This document shows positions 11,605 to 52,918 of a stretch of DNA of 64,000 bases, one piece after another. The stretch spans positions 68,738 through 132,737 of the forward strand of contig CAIMEY010000121.1 in the NCBI GenBank assembly GCA_903840165.1, written 5' to 3'. The notes beneath the pieces were generated by a model. The model was not told the origin of the DNA. It was given only the letters and a program-made list of their open reading frames with translations, and made no database searches. This DNA comes from an uncultured Myxococcales bacterium. GTDB taxonomy: Bacteria; Myxococcota_A; UBA9042. The first letter of the stretch is position 1. Every line of letters starts with the position of its first letter. The position numbers and the translations under genes are program-made.

Positions 11605-11618
11605 ACTTGTATACAAGT
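11605..11618. promoter_or_regulatory. Perfect 14-bp AT-rich palindrome ACTTGTATACAAGT ~100 bp upstream of ribBA; candidate operator
   Basis: The palindrome was read directly in the sequence. It is the only strongly AT-rich dyad in the 620-bp ribBA/yebC intergenic region. Confidence 0.3.
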
Positions 11619-21264: not shown

Positions 21265-21390
21265 TTTTCGCGGCCCAAGCACCAACGCACTGTGCCCAGA
21301 GGGCCCATTGGCGGCGCAGTGGGGCTCAAGAACGCGTTTTGACAGGCTGAACAGCCGTTCCCACAGGGTAGCCTGGCGCGCTTGCATCGC

Positions 21391-21454
21391 GTGGCTCGGG
21401 CTGGGCGGGTGCGTGGCTCGGGCTGGGCGGGTGCGTGGCTTTGGCTGGGCCGGG
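21391..21454. repeat. Tandem 22-bp repeat (GTGGCTCGGGCTGGGCGGGTGC x ~2.9)
   Basis: Read directly in the intergenic region between the yqeY-like gene and the 3' end of the beta-helix gene. Confidence 0.8.
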
Positions 21455-28857: not shown

Positions 28858-28995
28858 ACCGGCCCGGGGCGTAGGCATCACGGACGCCAAGGCTGAATCA
28901 GCGCAGAAGGGCGTTGCGATAAGCGACGAATTTCCATGGAGATTCTGAGAAGCAGTACGATTCGCCGAGGAACTCAGCACGATTCGCCGAGTAAC

Positions 28996-29490
28996 TCAGT
29001 GCGCTTCGCAGGGACACTGCCGGGGAACCTGGCTGCGGTGGCTGCGGCAACGTTCGCGCGTCACGTCGCAGCGGGCATTGAGCGCTGGAACTGCGGGATA
29101 TCGCTTAGAAACATTGCAGACGCTGGCTGAGAGGTGGCAACTTTCGCTGGAGCGATTGCACATCTCAAAGCACAGGTCGACGGCATTGTCCGACGCGGCT
29201 ACTGACGCGATTTGAAAGCCGATTTGCATCTGGCGATTGGTTGCGACGTCCACAGTCAGACGGTCCTGCTCGGCTACGGCCGAAATGCCGACGTCGCCGT
29301 CCTTGTCGCCCGAGCAACCGGACAAAAGCAGCCCGAACAACACAGGGATTAGCGCTGCAGGGATTAGCGCTGCAGGGATAAGCGCTGCGGGGACCAACCG
29401 ACGCGACGCCAAGACGGACCCAAGCCCAGACGAACTAGGCTTGTGCGTGGGACAATCTATCTGCAATGTTCGGGCCTTCAACTGAAACAT
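28996..29490 (-). CDS. Small Cys-rich lipoprotein with (PAALI)x3 repeat in signal peptide
   Basis: The lipobox is LLSGC. A 15-bp in-frame tandem repeat lies at 29343-29387. The start is chosen at MFQLKA; upstream in-frame starts are possible. Confidence 0.4.
   Translation of the reverse strand: MFQLKARTLQIDCPTHKPSSSGLGSVLASRRLVPAALIPAALIPAALIPVLFGLLLSGCSGDKDGDVGISAVAEQDRLTVDVATNRQMQIGFQIASVAASDNAVDLCFEMCNRSSESCHLSASVCNVSKRYPAVPALNARCDVTRERCRSHRSQVPRQCPCEAH
29343..29387. repeat. Tandem 15-bp repeat x3 (CAGGGATTAGCGCTG) inside lipoprotein signal-peptide coding region
   Basis: Read directly in the sequence. It is in-frame and encodes PAALI/PAALI/PAALI on the minus strand. Confidence 0.85.
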
Positions 29491-43891: not shown

Positions 43892-43997
43892 CGCTGGCTA
43901 TGTTCCGATGTATGCCGAAGCAAATCAACTGAGGGCGGGCCGGGCTTGGCCGATGATTTGGCAGCAATTCTCTTTGTATACAAGGTCTTGACTGCGG

Positions 43998-48408: not shown

Positions 48409-50049
48409 ATGAAGAAATCATCTAGCTTATCGAATTGTACCTCCAGTGACTGCTCGACGCGCAGCCGCCGGAACCCGGCATGGCTCATGGCCATAGTCGC
48501 GCTAACCTGGCTTGCCGCAACGGCTTGCTCGTCTACCTCTGCGGGCGGAGGTGGCGGGGGAGGCTATACCGGAGGCGTGCCGGGCGCCGTCTGCAACACC
48601 CAGTACCAAAGCGCCGGCTGCGTGCTCTATCAGAACGTACCTACACGGGTTTTGTGCGCTGCGGGCGTTTGGACTCTGGTCGAAGCCTGCGCCAGCGGCA
48701 CCACCTGCAAGGAAGCGTTTGACAGCGGATCTAAGGCAAAAACAACGAGTTGTGTATTGATCACCTTACCCGGGGGAACCACGCCCAGTGATGCCAGCGG
48801 CGGCGATACCGCAGTCAGCGACAGCACCGGCAGCGACAGCACCGGCAGCGACGCAATCGGCACCGACAGCAGCGGAGACGTCACCGTCGTGCCAATGGAC
48901 ATTCCCGGCGCCAACGATGGTAACAGCTCCTGCGGCAATGGCACCTGTGAAGTCGGCGAAAACGTGAGCAATTGTCCGATTGACTGCGCCACCTGCGGCG
49001 ACAAAGTCTGCTCGGCCAATGAGTCGAGCGAGACATGCCCGGCGGACTGCAAGCCCGGCGTGGTCTGCGGCAATGGCACCTGTGAAGCCGGCGAAAACGT
49101 GGGTAATTGTCCGACAGACTGCGCAAGTTGTGGCGACGGCGTCTGCTCGGCCAATGAGTCCAACCAGACCTGCCCCGCCGACTGCAAGCCGAACGTGGTT
49201 TGCGGCGACGGCACCTGCTCAAGCGGTGAATCCTATTCCAATTGCCCGACCGACTGCCCCGCCAAATGCGGCGATGGCACCTGCAATGGCAACGAAAGCA
49301 ACGCCACGTGCCCAAGCGACTGCCCGGCGAAGTGTGGCAATGGCGTCTGTGAAGCTTCTGAGACGATTGCTAAATGTCCCGCGGACTGCGTCAAGTGCGG
49401 CGACGGCATTTGTAGCCCGGGCGAGAGCAGCGCCAACTGCGCCCAGGACTGCCCGGTGAAGCCAGTGTGCGGCAACGGCACCTGTGAAACGGGCGAAACG
49501 GTTGCAAATTGTGCGACGGATTGCGGCGCCAGCACCAAGGTCGGCTGCATCGCTGCGACCGGCACGGGCTGCGGCGGCTGTGCGTGCGAGGCGTGCGTGT
49601 GCAAGGGCCCGATTCCAGGCGGTTCTGCCACGGGCGACACCTACTGCTGCGGCACGGCCTGGGACGCCACGTGCGCGGGCGAGTGCAAGAGCTGCGGCGC
49701 TTGCGGGGCCTGCGTACCTGCCTGCAGCGGCAAACAATGCGGCAGTGACGGGTGCAGCGGCAGCTGCGGCACCTGCGGCGCTGGAACCGCCTGCTCGGCC
49801 ACCGGGCTCTGCCAAGCCGTCAGCAAGTGCGGCAACGGCGTCTGCGACAGCGGCGAGACCAATGCCACCTGCCCCAGCGACTGCCCCGCCGGCGGGGGTG
49901 CGTTTTGCGACACCCATTGCGGCGGATCCAGCGGCACCACCTGCTATTGCGACGCGGCCTGCAAGACCAACGGCGACTGCTGCAACTTCGCTGGTACGGC
50001 CACGGGAGGCACGTCCTGCGCGGGGTCAACGTGCGCGTCTTGCAAGTAG
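48409..50049 (+). CDS. Cys-rich lipoprotein with ~10 CG(D/N)GxCExGExxxNCPxDC modules (Myxococcus-type cysteine-rich repeat) and a Cys/Gly-rich C-terminal domain
   Basis: A lipobox is present (LAATAC). The repeated modules were read directly in the translation. A Ser/Thr/Asp-rich linker is present. The start is uncertain (48409 or 48487). Confidence 0.6.
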   Translation: MKKSSSLSNCTSSDCSTRSRRNPAWLMAIVALTWLAATACSSTSAGGGGGGGYTGGVPGAVCNTQYQSAGCVLYQNVPTRVLCAAGVWTLVEACASGTTCKEAFDSGSKAKTTSCVLITLPGGTTPSDASGGDTAVSDSTGSDSTGSDAIGTDSSGDVTVVPMDIPGANDGNSSCGNGTCEVGENVSNCPIDCATCGDKVCSANESSETCPADCKPGVVCGNGTCEAGENVGNCPTDCASCGDGVCSANESNQTCPADCKPNVVCGDGTCSSGESYSNCPTDCPAKCGDGTCNGNESNATCPSDCPAKCGNGVCEASETIAKCPADCVKCGDGICSPGESSANCAQDCPVKPVCGNGTCETGETVANCATDCGASTKVGCIAATGTGCGGCACEACVCKGPIPGGSATGDTYCCGTAWDATCAGECKSCGACGACVPACSGKQCGSDGCSGSCGTCGAGTACSATGLCQAVSKCGNGVCDSGETNATCPSDCPAGGGAFCDTHCGGSSGTTCYCDAACKTNGDCCNFAGTATGGTSCAGSTCASCK

Positions 50050-50055
50050 GGACGC

Positions 50056-50510
50056 GCGAAATCGTTGGCGAATTGTTTGTATAGCAAGGCTCTATCTTGC
50101 TGTTCTGTAAGCACTTTTCCCGATCGCCGCTTCAGCCCAAAACCCAGCCAGAGAACCGCGCCGGCTCGGCGGGGTGGCCAGGGCGAAATCATTGGCGAAT
50201 TGTTTGTATAGCAAGGCTCTATCTTACTGTTCTGTAAGCACTTTCCCCGATAGCCGCTTCAGCCCAAAACCCAGCCAGAGAACCGCGCCGGCTCGGCGGG
50301 GTGGCCAGGGCGAAATCATTGGCGAATTGTTTGTATAGCAAGGCTCTATCTTGCTGTTCTGTAAGCACTTTCTCCGATAGCCGCTTCAGCCCAAAACCCA
50401 GCCAGAGAACCGCGCCGGCTCGGCAGGGCGGCCAGGGCGAAATCATTGGCGAATTGTTTGTATAGCAAGGCTCTATCTTGCTGTTCTGTAAACCTATTTT
50501 CCGTCAAGCG
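50056..50510. repeat. Tandem array of a 127-bp unit, 3 full copies plus a partial one, each with an embedded hairpin (AGCAAGgctctatCTTGCT)
   Basis: Copies begin at ~50056, 50183, 50310 and 50437 and are more than 95% identical. The array abuts the stop codon of the upstream gene and ends at the 3' end of the convergent GMC oxidoreductase gene. Confidence 0.9.
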
Positions 50511-50518
50511 CTTCAGCC

Positions 50519-52180
50519 TCAGGCCGCTACGACGTCCGTCGGCACAACAGCTTGGCCGTTGGCGCTGGGGATGGCCGCCATGGCGTGCTCGGTCAGCGCC
50601 GTGATGGTCAGGCTTGGATTGACGCCTAAGTTCGCAGGCATGACCGAGCCATCGCACACGTACAGGCCCTGGTAGCCGTAGACGCGGTGCTGGGCGTCGA
50701 CGACGCCGTGGCCCTCGGCACCAATCGCGCAACCACCGAGAATGTGTGCGGTTGTCGGGATATCCAGCAGCACTTCATTGACGGCCGACATGGGGATGCC
50801 GCCGATCTTCTTGGCGACGCGACGCGCGACTTCGTTGCCGATGGGGATGTAGGTCGGGTTGGTCGGTTGCCCGGCGGGACGCTCGGTGGTGAGGCCACGG
50901 CTAAAGGGCCACCACCACTGGCGTTTCCATCGCGCATTCAGGCTGTTATCGAGGGTCTGCATCACCAGCAGAATCACGCCTCGCCGCGCCCAGCCGAACT
51001 TCCAGCAGGTGCCGAGAAATTGCAGTGGGTGGCCAATGACGGTCGCCAACCACCTGATTCCGCGTGGTATCTTGCCGCCGCCATCGGTCAAGAGCGTGGC
51101 CAGCAGGGACAGGGCGTCGTTGCCCTCACCGTAACGGACGACTTCGATGTGGGTGTGCTCGTCAAAGAAAGCGCCGGAGGTGATGGCAACGCCTTTGCTG
51201 AAATCGATGCCGCCCGAGGCCCCCATGGCGCCACAGATGGCCTCGCTGTTGGTGCGCAGCTTGTTGCCCAAGGCGTCGGGCAAATACGCTAGTGATCCTT
51301 TGTGCTTGCAGTCCATGAGCAGAGGCAGTGTTCCCATGACGCCGCCGGCACAGACCACGTGTTTGGCGCGCAGGCGTTGACGCTTGCCGAATAGTCGCGC
51401 TAGACCGATCGACGGGCGGATTTCTACTTCATATCCATTGCTTCCCCGGGTCTCGGCCCCGCCAATGCAGTGGATGGCGATGACTTCCCGCTCCGCCGTG
51501 ACCGTGGTGCCAAGGCGCTCGGCTAGGTATAAGTAATTGCGATCTAAGGTGTTTTTTGCGCCGTGCTTGCAACCGGTCATGCACGCGCCGCATTGAATGC
51601 ACCCCGTGCGCGCTGGCCCTTTGCCGCCAAAATAGGGGTCAGGCACGGTCTTGCCATTTTCTCCAAAGAAAACGCCCACATCAGTAGCTTTAAAGGTGTG
51701 AGCGGTACCCATGTCCTGGGCGATTTCGCGCAGCACATCGTCGGCCGGGCCAAAGACCGGGTTGGCCACGGCGCCGAGCATTCGTTGAGCCTGCCGGTAG
51801 TAAGGGCTTAATTCCTTTTGCCAATCTTCGCTCAGGCCGGCCCACTGCGGGTCGCGAAAGAAGGGCTCCGGCGGAATCAACAAGGTGTTGGCATAGACGA
51901 GCGAACCGCCGCCGACGCCCGACCCAGACAAGACCAGAACATCTTTGAGCAAACTAAGGTTGAGGATGCCGACGCAGTGCAAGAGCGGCAGCCACATCGA
52001 GCCAAAGACGTTCCAGTTTGTCTTGGGGAAGTCGCTGGGCGCCCAGCGTTTTCCACGCTCGATGACCTGTACGCGGTAGCCCTTTTCGGCCAGACGCAGC
52101 GCCGAGACACTGCCGCCAAAGCCGGAGCCAATGATGAGATAGTCGCAGTCAAAGCCTTCCGAATCACTCATATTTTCCAC
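50519..52180 (-). CDS. GMC-family FAD-dependent oxidoreductase (cholesterol-oxidase-like)
   Basis: The N-terminal motif YLIIGSGFGGSVSALRLAEKGYRVQVIERG is present, together with the conserved C-terminal His-containing region. Confidence 0.85.
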   Translation of the reverse strand: MENMSDSEGFDCDYLIIGSGFGGSVSALRLAEKGYRVQVIERGKRWAPSDFPKTNWNVFGSMWLPLLHCVGILNLSLLKDVLVLSGSGVGGGSLVYANTLLIPPEPFFRDPQWAGLSEDWQKELSPYYRQAQRMLGAVANPVFGPADDVLREIAQDMGTAHTFKATDVGVFFGENGKTVPDPYFGGKGPARTGCIQCGACMTGCKHGAKNTLDRNYLYLAERLGTTVTAEREVIAIHCIGGAETRGSNGYEVEIRPSIGLARLFGKRQRLRAKHVVCAGGVMGTLPLLMDCKHKGSLAYLPDALGNKLRTNSEAICGAMGASGGIDFSKGVAITSGAFFDEHTHIEVVRYGEGNDALSLLATLLTDGGGKIPRGIRWLATVIGHPLQFLGTCWKFGWARRGVILLVMQTLDNSLNARWKRQWWWPFSRGLTTERPAGQPTNPTYIPIGNEVARRVAKKIGGIPMSAVNEVLLDIPTTAHILGGCAIGAEGHGVVDAQHRVYGYQGLYVCDGSVMPANLGVNPSLTITALTEHAMAAIPSANGQAVVPTDVVAA

Positions 52181-52216
52181 CTTCTCTCAGTCGGGCTTGG
52201 CACAGCCAGGGTCCAC

Positions 52217-52279
52217 ATGCTACCGACCCGTGCCCAGATGCTACCGACCCGTGCCCAGATGCTACCGACCCGTGCGCTG
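52217..52279. repeat. Tandem 21-bp repeat x3 (ATGCTACCGACCCGTGCCCAG)
   Basis: Read directly in the sequence. It lies between the 3' end of the 52262..52918 membrane-protein gene and the start of the GMC oxidoreductase gene. Confidence 0.85.
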
Positions 52280-52918
52280 CCCTGACAATGGCTGCAGTAG
52301 CACGAGCCCCGCCGGCCGCAGTCGCCGCGTCGTCCACAAGGCCACCGGCGCGCCGTGCAGATAGATGCCAGCCAGCCACCAGGGCACCTGGCCAAGCCCT
52401 GGATGTAAATAGTGAAAAGCGCCCGTGCTCGCCAGCAAATGCTCATACGTGCAGCCGACCAGCGCTAGCCCCGCCCCATGCAACCACAACACGCGCCGCT
52501 CCGGCTGCCGGGCCGTGCGCCACAGCCAAGTCAGCCCGTAGCCCGCCGTCAGCGCCATGGGCCACTGCGACAGCAAACCGCTTGCGCCATAAGCGCCTAA
52601 AAACCAAAGCCAACTTTGCAGCAACTGGCCCCGCGTTGGCTCTAGCGGTTGCTGGGCCACGGCAAACAAGGCCGGCCCCTGACTCTGCAAAAACATGAGC
52701 AAAGCCGCTAGGCCGAACTGAGGGCCTACCCACCAAGCCTGCGCCAAGAAATCGGCATGGGCATAGGCAAGAATCTGACATTGCACGTGAATCTGATCGA
52801 ACAGCGCGCCAAGCACCGTGCCACCCAGGAGCACGACAACCCACTGCCAAAGGGGCGGCACCCAGTGCGGGCGGAAAAACTGCAGCAATCTCCAAGCATT
52901 CTGGGGCATTTGCCGCAC
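52262..52918 (-). CDS. Hypothetical Trp-rich polytopic membrane protein
   Basis: Six hydrophobic segments are present. No family was recognised. Confidence 0.4.
   Translation of the reverse strand: MRQMPQNAWRLLQFFRPHWVPPLWQWVVVLLGGTVLGALFDQIHVQCQILAYAHADFLAQAWWVGPQFGLAALLMFLQSQGPALFAVAQQPLEPTRGQLLQSWLWFLGAYGASGLLSQWPMALTAGYGLTWLWRTARQPERRVLWLHGAGLALVGCTYEHLLASTGAFHYLHPGLGQVPWWLAGIYLHGAPVALWTTRRLRPAGLVLLQPLSGQRTGR

Follow-up and report, generated by a model that had tools for sequence, protein, structure and literature searches.

What kind of element is a near-identical 127-bp sequence that is repeated head to tail, carries small hairpins and fills the entire space between two convergent genes? 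The question is raised by an array at 50056 to about 50518 of a 64-kb stretch of DNA (the whole of which is called the window here) from an uncultured freshwater member of the Myxococcota. The first-pass annotation of this DNA had read the array as an expanded, structured intergenic element, either REP/MITE-like or a repeated 3' UTR or small-RNA module. We consider it to be a near-neutral minisatellite (VNTR) in the spacer between the two genes, a reading to which we assign a probability of roughly 0.75. The array combines a tandem structure and copy-number polymorphism with a lack of coding, RNA-family, promoter, terminator and transposon features.

Three full copies of the unit (u1, 50056–50182; u2, 50183–50309; u3, 50310–50436), 97% identical to one another, are followed by an 82-nt partial copy (u4, 50437–50518). 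Tandem Repeats Finder (TRF) delimited the array at 50056–50491, with a period of 127, 3.4 copies, 97% matches and no indels, and gave it a score of 823, the highest in the window. A 38-nt core, TTGTTTGTATAGCAAGGCTCTATCTTGCTGTTCTGTAA, occurs four times at a spacing of 127 nt, with 0.00 occurrences expected from shuffled sequences. Between u1 and u3 seven positions vary, with pairwise differences of 4–6 per 127, and both halves of the unit are affected (two substitutions in unit positions 1–55, five in positions 56–127). The partial copy is identical to u3 over unit positions 1–55 (55/55), and 67% identical over positions 56–82 (18/27), a segment that includes the exact 10-mer CGCTTCAGCC, although 11 of 500 shuffles matched as well. 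Since similarity is at chance level past position 82, homology ends at about 50518, and the array comprises approximately 3.65 copies, close to the 3.6 proposed in the first-pass annotation. A minisatellite or VNTR is defined by units, from about 10 to over 100 bp in length, that are repeated in tandem head to tail, and the array has this arrangement. It also displays the pattern of concerted evolution, in which internal copies are more alike than the edge copy, as u1 to u3 are near-identical and u4 is diverged past position 55. No coding capacity was found: the period of 127 is not divisible by 3, so that the mechanical ORFs listed for the array shift frame from one unit to the next.

The array begins at the seventh base past the TAG (50047–50049) of a gene for a Cys-rich protein on the plus strand and ends one base short of the TGA (50519–50521) of a GMC oxidoreductase gene on the minus strand, occupying the whole spacer between the two stop codons. 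Both limits, and the nature of the two genes, had been correctly recognized in the annotation. The Cys-rich gene (48409–50049, plus strand, within a mechanical ORF from 48202) encodes a secreted protein or lipoprotein with a somatomedin-B-like C-terminus, and its N-terminus, SRRNPAWLMAIVALTWLAATAC (SRRNPAWL...LAATAC), looks like a lipoprotein or Tat signal. The protein belongs to a real family with 902 homologues, several of them carrying PF01033 (somatomedin-B); it has itself no Pfam or NCBIfam match and no close orthologue. Within its coding sequence, the gene has repeats of its own, one a 135-bp tandem repeat (48930–49257) in which a CGNGTCExGEN...C module occurs about 2.4 times, the other of 15 bp (48816–48875). 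Gene callers missed it in most public assemblies and called four antisense ORFs (82, 99, 132 and 194 aa) instead, of which the 82-aa ORF begins within the 127-bp array.

The convergent GMC-family oxidoreductase gene (50519–52171, minus strand) is cholesterol-oxidase-like and encodes both GMC_oxred_N and GMC_oxred_C domains. Its nearest orthologues are 72%–79% identical at the amino acid level and have different downstream genes; in GTDB, the closest genomes are MAGs of uncultured freshwater 'Myxococcales', whose GMC proteins are 72%–74% identical. At its C-terminus the protein is extended by about 11 aa (...SANGQAVVPTDVVAA; 50519–50563, minus strand) compared with the relatives at 72%–74% identity, which end in ...ASVPQKV or ...ASVPRKS. 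Derivation of unit positions 83–127 from the 3' coding end of the GMC gene, or of the extension from a decayed unit, was considered and rejected, the alignment not exceeding that of shuffles. A second tandem repeat lies at the other end of this gene, where the 90-bp spacer preceding the GMC start codon (52171) contains 3.0 copies of the 21-bp sequence CCAGATGCTACCGACCCGTGC (52213–52275). On the minus strand each 21-bp unit contains TAGCAT, and a promoter-like TTGTCA-18-TAGCAT was called at 52288–52259; as this site overlaps the repeat, copy number could shift promoter spacing. Further short tandem repeats occur at 21389–21450 (22 bp × 2.8), 28953–29009 (22 bp × 2.6) and 29343–29393 (15 bp × 3.4), with 85%–95% identity and apparently in or near intergenic regions, which suggests that small tandem duplications are common in the host genome.

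Comparison between strains revealed that the number of 127-bp units varies. The 550-aa GMC protein was found with identical sequence on nine public metagenome contigs, the names of which point to stratified-lake metagenomes. These same-species contigs match the window at 99.9% identity or more in the flanks, and their flanking proteins are 100% identical. Array length was read from the spacing between the GMC stop and the start of the glycosyltransferase gene, which is 2025 nt in the window (3.6 copies). This spacing is 1898 nt (−127) on contig 7lV1i2E_ (ERZ1426621), where 2.6 copies are indicated from gene spacing only, and 1771 nt (−254) on five contigs from ERZ27313596 and ERZ27313597 (L001, L004, L078, L100 and L101), corresponding to 1.6 copies. 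The sequence of L001 is exactly u1 fused to u4, u1 being the single full unit of the 1.6-copy allele. The strains of ERZ27313596 and ERZ27313597 that carry this allele also have 2.0 copies of the easily assembled 21-bp repeat, compared with three in the window. The view of the array as an expanded intergenic sequence is borne out by alleles of 1.6, 2.6 and 3.6 copies, the kind of variation between strains that the annotation had proposed to look for.

All compared assemblies are short-read assemblies, by which tandem arrays can be mis-sized, and the repeat or its variation in copy number could in principle have been created by the assembler, a concern that the first-pass annotation had itself raised. 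Illumina reads are known to size MIRU-type minisatellites poorly (PMC3635867), and four of the contigs (L002, L005, L079 and L003) are broken or carry an N gap within the array. Nonetheless, at least 1.6 copies are present in every independent assembly, and the order of the units, which can be told apart by their seven variable positions, is consistent wherever it can be followed: in the window, in L003, where the unit order of the 3.6-copy structure continues through a scaffold gap of 100 N whose true length is zero, and in L079 and L002, two contigs of a single sample that stop within the array and meet at 50307/50310. Moreover, the 1.6-copy contigs derive from k=141 assemblies, and variants specific to u1 and to u4 lie about 113 nt apart, inside one 141-mer, so that the junction between them should exist in the reads. 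The 1.6-copy allele is also paired with a different allele of the 21-bp repeat. Because copy numbers of 1.6, 2.6 and 3.6 occur between flanks at least 99.9% identical, next to a 21-bp repeat that is itself variable, we regard the array as a VNTR rather than an assembly artefact. The array is real and polymorphic in copy number between near-identical strains, collapse by the assembler is unlikely, and an artefactual origin is barely credible.

Near-identical internal copies, a degenerate edge, alleles that differ by whole units between strains only a few point mutations apart, and a second variable repeat nearby all point to a minisatellite evolving by unequal exchange. Under this model, an old local duplication would have placed a second copy of an AT-rich segment (about 55–80 nt) 127 nt from the first. 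The shortest allele still has such an A-B-A' layout, with two AT-rich segments of 55–82 nt at a distance of 127 nt. RecA-dependent unequal homologous recombination, or replication slippage, between the direct repeats would then add or remove whole 127-bp units, giving rise to the alleles of 1.6, 2.6 and 3.6 copies while the internal copies were kept homogenised. An old duplication followed by unit exchange would account for the drop in identity from 100% to 67% at u4 position 55. The hairpins would, in such a history, be incidental features of a duplicated spacer and not selected structures. Both the mutational mechanism and the near-neutrality of the array are inferred from these patterns, and sequence alone cannot prove neutrality.

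Each unit was originally described as carrying an AT-rich hairpin (AGCAAG-gctctat-CTTGCT) and a GC-rich dyad, a description that holds for most copies. The hairpin, at 50083–50101 in u1 (plus strand), is intact in u3 (50337–50355) and u4 (50464–50482), but in u2 (50210–50228) a G>A change at unit position 44 turns CTTGCT into CTTACT and breaks the stem. The GC-rich dyad (50155–50175 in u1, with repeats at 50282–50302 and 50409–50429) has the core CGCCG-gct-CGGCG at 50159–50171 in u1 and 50286–50298 in u2, and is weakened in u3, where G>A at unit position 116 gives CGGCA. Two of the seven substitutions thus hit proposed stems, neither of them compensated, and with substitutions scattered across the entire unit, its hairpin-bearing half shows no sign of being under purifying selection. 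As plus-strand RNA, the AT-rich hairpin extends to nine pairs with about −11 kcal/mol and is followed by a U-containing tail, GUUCUGUAAGCACUUUU. It is the best local hairpin, at z = −1.4, and 17 of 200 shuffles fold equally well; the GC-rich dyad reaches z = −1.1 on the plus strand and −0.2 on the minus strand. Compared with dinucleotide shuffles, the RNA fold of the whole 127-bp unit is not better than expected on either strand (z = +1.0 and +0.8 for plus and minus), which speaks against calling the element structured.

Searches for RNA genes and transcription signals were likewise negative. At gathering thresholds, Rfam gave no match in the whole window, and with E up to 10 the sole match in the array region was a chance snoZ40 snoRNA (20 bits versus a gathering score of 50); a tRNA/tmRNA scan found none. 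Neither a sigma-70-type promoter nor an intrinsic terminator was detected in the array on either strand, in a scan whose promoter model covers the sigma-70 type only. Terminator-like sites are not enriched at 40–60 kb of the window (16 seen versus 20.6 expected), and their absence from the array is accordingly weak, largely uninformative evidence. A sigma-54 reading of TGGCGAATTGTTTGT (TGGCGA-N5-TTGT) was rejected, as it needs three mismatches and such matches are at chance frequency in the window (760 seen versus 761 expected).

The unit was further searched for elsewhere, by DNA and by translation. BLASTN at word size 7 found no further copies in the 64-kb window. DNA pattern scans gave no match to the unit in GTDB (one genome per species) or in IMG/VR, the exact core had no match in the JGI metagenomes, and BLAST with the unit returned no match among plasmids and phages. 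A protein search with the translated unit, used as a proxy for a DNA search of the ENA and Logan assemblies, compared the unit ORF with 5.8 billion proteins and recovered only the spurious 82-aa ORF of the same locus, although such a search would miss single copies that stand alone. No second copy, and with it no sign of MIRU-like dispersal, was seen in the window or in the collections searched, but single dispersed copies may lie elsewhere in the host genome. The unit is absent from all relatives, and no orthologous spacer exists, as both flanking genes have other neighbours in the nearest relatives. With a looser hairpin pattern, 13 matches were obtained in JGI, which we rejected since all are on unrelated contigs, mostly AT-rich (27%–51% G+C), without flank similarity. 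L088, L089, L091, L093 and L097 (JGI Ga0081479 and Ga0080004) belong to an unrelated AT-rich genome of about 27%–29% G+C. That genome has its own dispersed repeat of at least 120 nt, with a terminator-like hairpin, TTTTTTGTATAGCAAGGATTTATCCTTGCTTTTAAAATC, and conserved flanks, on five contigs; it matched the search pattern by chance.

A short motif in the unit was found at other sites in the window. Three independent places in the 64 kb carry the sequence TTGTATA(N0-2)CAAG, versus 0.02 expected. In the array it takes the form TTTGTATAGCAAGG (50076–50089 in u1, recurring every 127 nt). The second place is the perfect 14-mer palindrome ACTTGTATACAAGT at 11605–11618, between ribBA (minus strand) and yebC (plus strand) and upstream of ribBA, which the annotation had pointed out and which is present there. 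The third is the palindrome TTTGTATACAAGG/CTTTGTATACAAGG at about 43972–43985, 12 nt past the stop of a radical-SAM gene and upstream of a GATase gene. The CTTGTATACAAG-type sites at 11605 and about 43973 are perfect palindromes of 11–14 nt, both intergenic. Given that such a palindrome is expected only 0.02 times per window, CTTGTATACAAG may be an operator for a regulator, and the rarity of the motif hints at a possible protein-binding site within the duplicated segment. The resemblance between array and palindrome noted previously is thus real at the level of the motif, but goes little further. The unit form equals the site TTTGTATACAAGG (43973–43985) with one extra G, and this extra base shifts the right half-site out of the register of the palindrome. 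The high z-scores of the unit against the 43973 region mainly come from the motif by which that site was chosen; once it is excluded, the flanks are only marginally similar (p of about 0.025–0.5, depending on the scoring, and 1% when real sequences serve as controls). We did not accept that the unit and the 43973 region are homologous outside the motif, since the similarity is marginal and varies with the scoring scheme. Same-species copies apart, the motif is also missing from some 830 kb of other loci, both related and unrelated.

Several functional readings of the array can be weighed against these results. As a functional 3'-UTR module, the unit might serve as a weak terminator, as an insulator between the convergent genes or as a REP-like barrier to 3' exonucleases, which would stabilise the Cys-rich mRNA to a degree tuned by copy number. 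Its location, beginning just past the Cys-rich stop and filling the entire convergent spacer, would suit such a role, as would the nine-pair plus-strand hairpin and its U-containing tail, and the lack of a canonical terminator carries little weight in a region where such sites are not enriched. We count it against the neutral reading that this hairpin, lying in the position of the 3' UTR of the Cys-rich gene, is somewhat stabler than shuffles. However, its stability remains within the shuffle range and the whole unit has z above zero; the tail offers no U-tract satisfying the terminator scan, the stem-breaking change in u2 is uncompensated, no covariation is seen, and conservation outside the species is lacking. 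A 3'-UTR function for the unit thus seems unlikely. Tandem small-RNA genes, each repeat with its own promoter and terminator as in NsiR1 of Anabaena, appear highly improbable. The near-identical intergenic units, with an AT-rich segment preceding a GC-rich dyad, do recall that arrangement, and there is a precedent in the 12 tandem nsiR1 copies, each with its own promoter (PMC4030482). Yet the array has no sigma-70-type promoter or terminator on either strand, its sigma-54-like match is at chance level, and neither an Rfam family nor a fold signal was found. The unit is moreover conserved in no related genome, unlike the nsiR1 arrays shared across heterocystous cyanobacteria, and the small-RNA module suggested initially was not upheld.

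The same sequence could instead act at the level of DNA. With a degenerate CTTGTATACAAG in each unit, the array might form a cluster of protein-binding sites, two to four copies of which would bind or titrate a regulator or act as a roadblock. The recurrence of the motif well above expectation favours this, together with the two perfect intergenic palindromes upstream of ribBA and of the GATase gene and the single G that separates the unit form from one of them. That same G, however, places the half-sites out of register, the flanks resemble each other only marginally once the motif is held out, the motif is missing from other loci beyond the species, and there is no candidate regulator, all of which makes such a cluster very unlikely. 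A miniature mobile element or REP-type dispersed repeat, amplified locally, was one suggestion of the first-pass annotation and is largely refuted. Only the short dyads and the intergenic location speak for it. The inverted-repeat search yielded no terminal inverted repeats, just the internal GC dyad and short chance pairs, and no target-site duplication was detected, as the left flank ...TAGGGACGC (GGGACGC) and the right flank TCAGGCCGC... (TCAGGCC) have no common direct repeat. The copies run strictly head to tail with no other copy in the data searched, and the short dispersed palindrome typical of REP/BIME elements is not seen here, dispersed copies being absent and the dyads no stabler than shuffles.

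A near-neutral minisatellite accordingly remains our preferred reading, although its position invites one more elaborate scenario. The 127-bp array at the 3' end and the 21-bp array in the promoter region bracket the GMC gene and together might constitute a contingency locus, which we regard as quite unlikely. If this were true, copy number would switch or tune the expression of the GMC oxidoreductase, the Cys-rich surface protein or both, and the units might be sites for a CTTGTATACAAG-recognising regulator, or RNA 3'-end modules. As a minisatellite, the array is of small biological significance: a conspicuous, hairpin-bearing repeat turns out to be a fast-evolving minisatellite and not a new RNA or mobile element. 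In practice, the 127-bp array and the 21-bp repeat are ready strain markers for the lake population of the host, and the larger array is a predictable site of breakage and mis-sizing in short-read metagenome assemblies, four public contigs being truncated or gapped inside it.

Among known systems, regular periodicity in non-coding DNA is shared with CRISPR arrays, but there are no unique spacers here, since the repetition, at 97% identity, extends over the full 127 bp, so the exclusion of a CRISPR array in the annotation was well founded. REP/BIME and MITE elements occur as tens to hundreds of dispersed copies, and MITEs are bounded by terminal inverted repeats and target-site duplications. 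The array resembles such elements (including Correia elements and REPINs) in being a short intergenic sequence with dyad symmetries, of a kind frequently located at the 3' ends of genes; it differs in lacking dispersal, terminal inverted repeats and a target-site duplication. With the NsiR1 array it has in common near-identical, non-coding tandem units in an intergenic region. However, every repeat of nsiR1 gives rise to a 60-nt sRNA from a promoter of its own, and that array is conserved across genomes of heterocystous cyanobacteria (PMC4030482), whereas the 127-bp array lacks a promoter, a terminator, a fold signal and conservation.

The closest known kind is the bacterial minisatellite, as represented by the MIRU-VNTR loci of Mycobacterium tuberculosis, which are mostly intergenic, variable in copy number, fast-mutating and poorly sized by short reads (PMC3635867). 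The 127-bp unit departs from MIRUs in occurring at one locus only in all searchable data, and between convergent genes. MIRUs, for their part, reportedly form a dispersed family at about 40 loci, often within operons. The array is an instance of this known kind, with no evidence of a new mechanism. With the MIRU-VNTR loci it shares head-to-tail units some tens of bp to about 100 bp long, a location that is mostly intergenic, a high-GC host genome and a copy number that differs between close strains, changing much faster than point mutations accumulate (PMC3635867).
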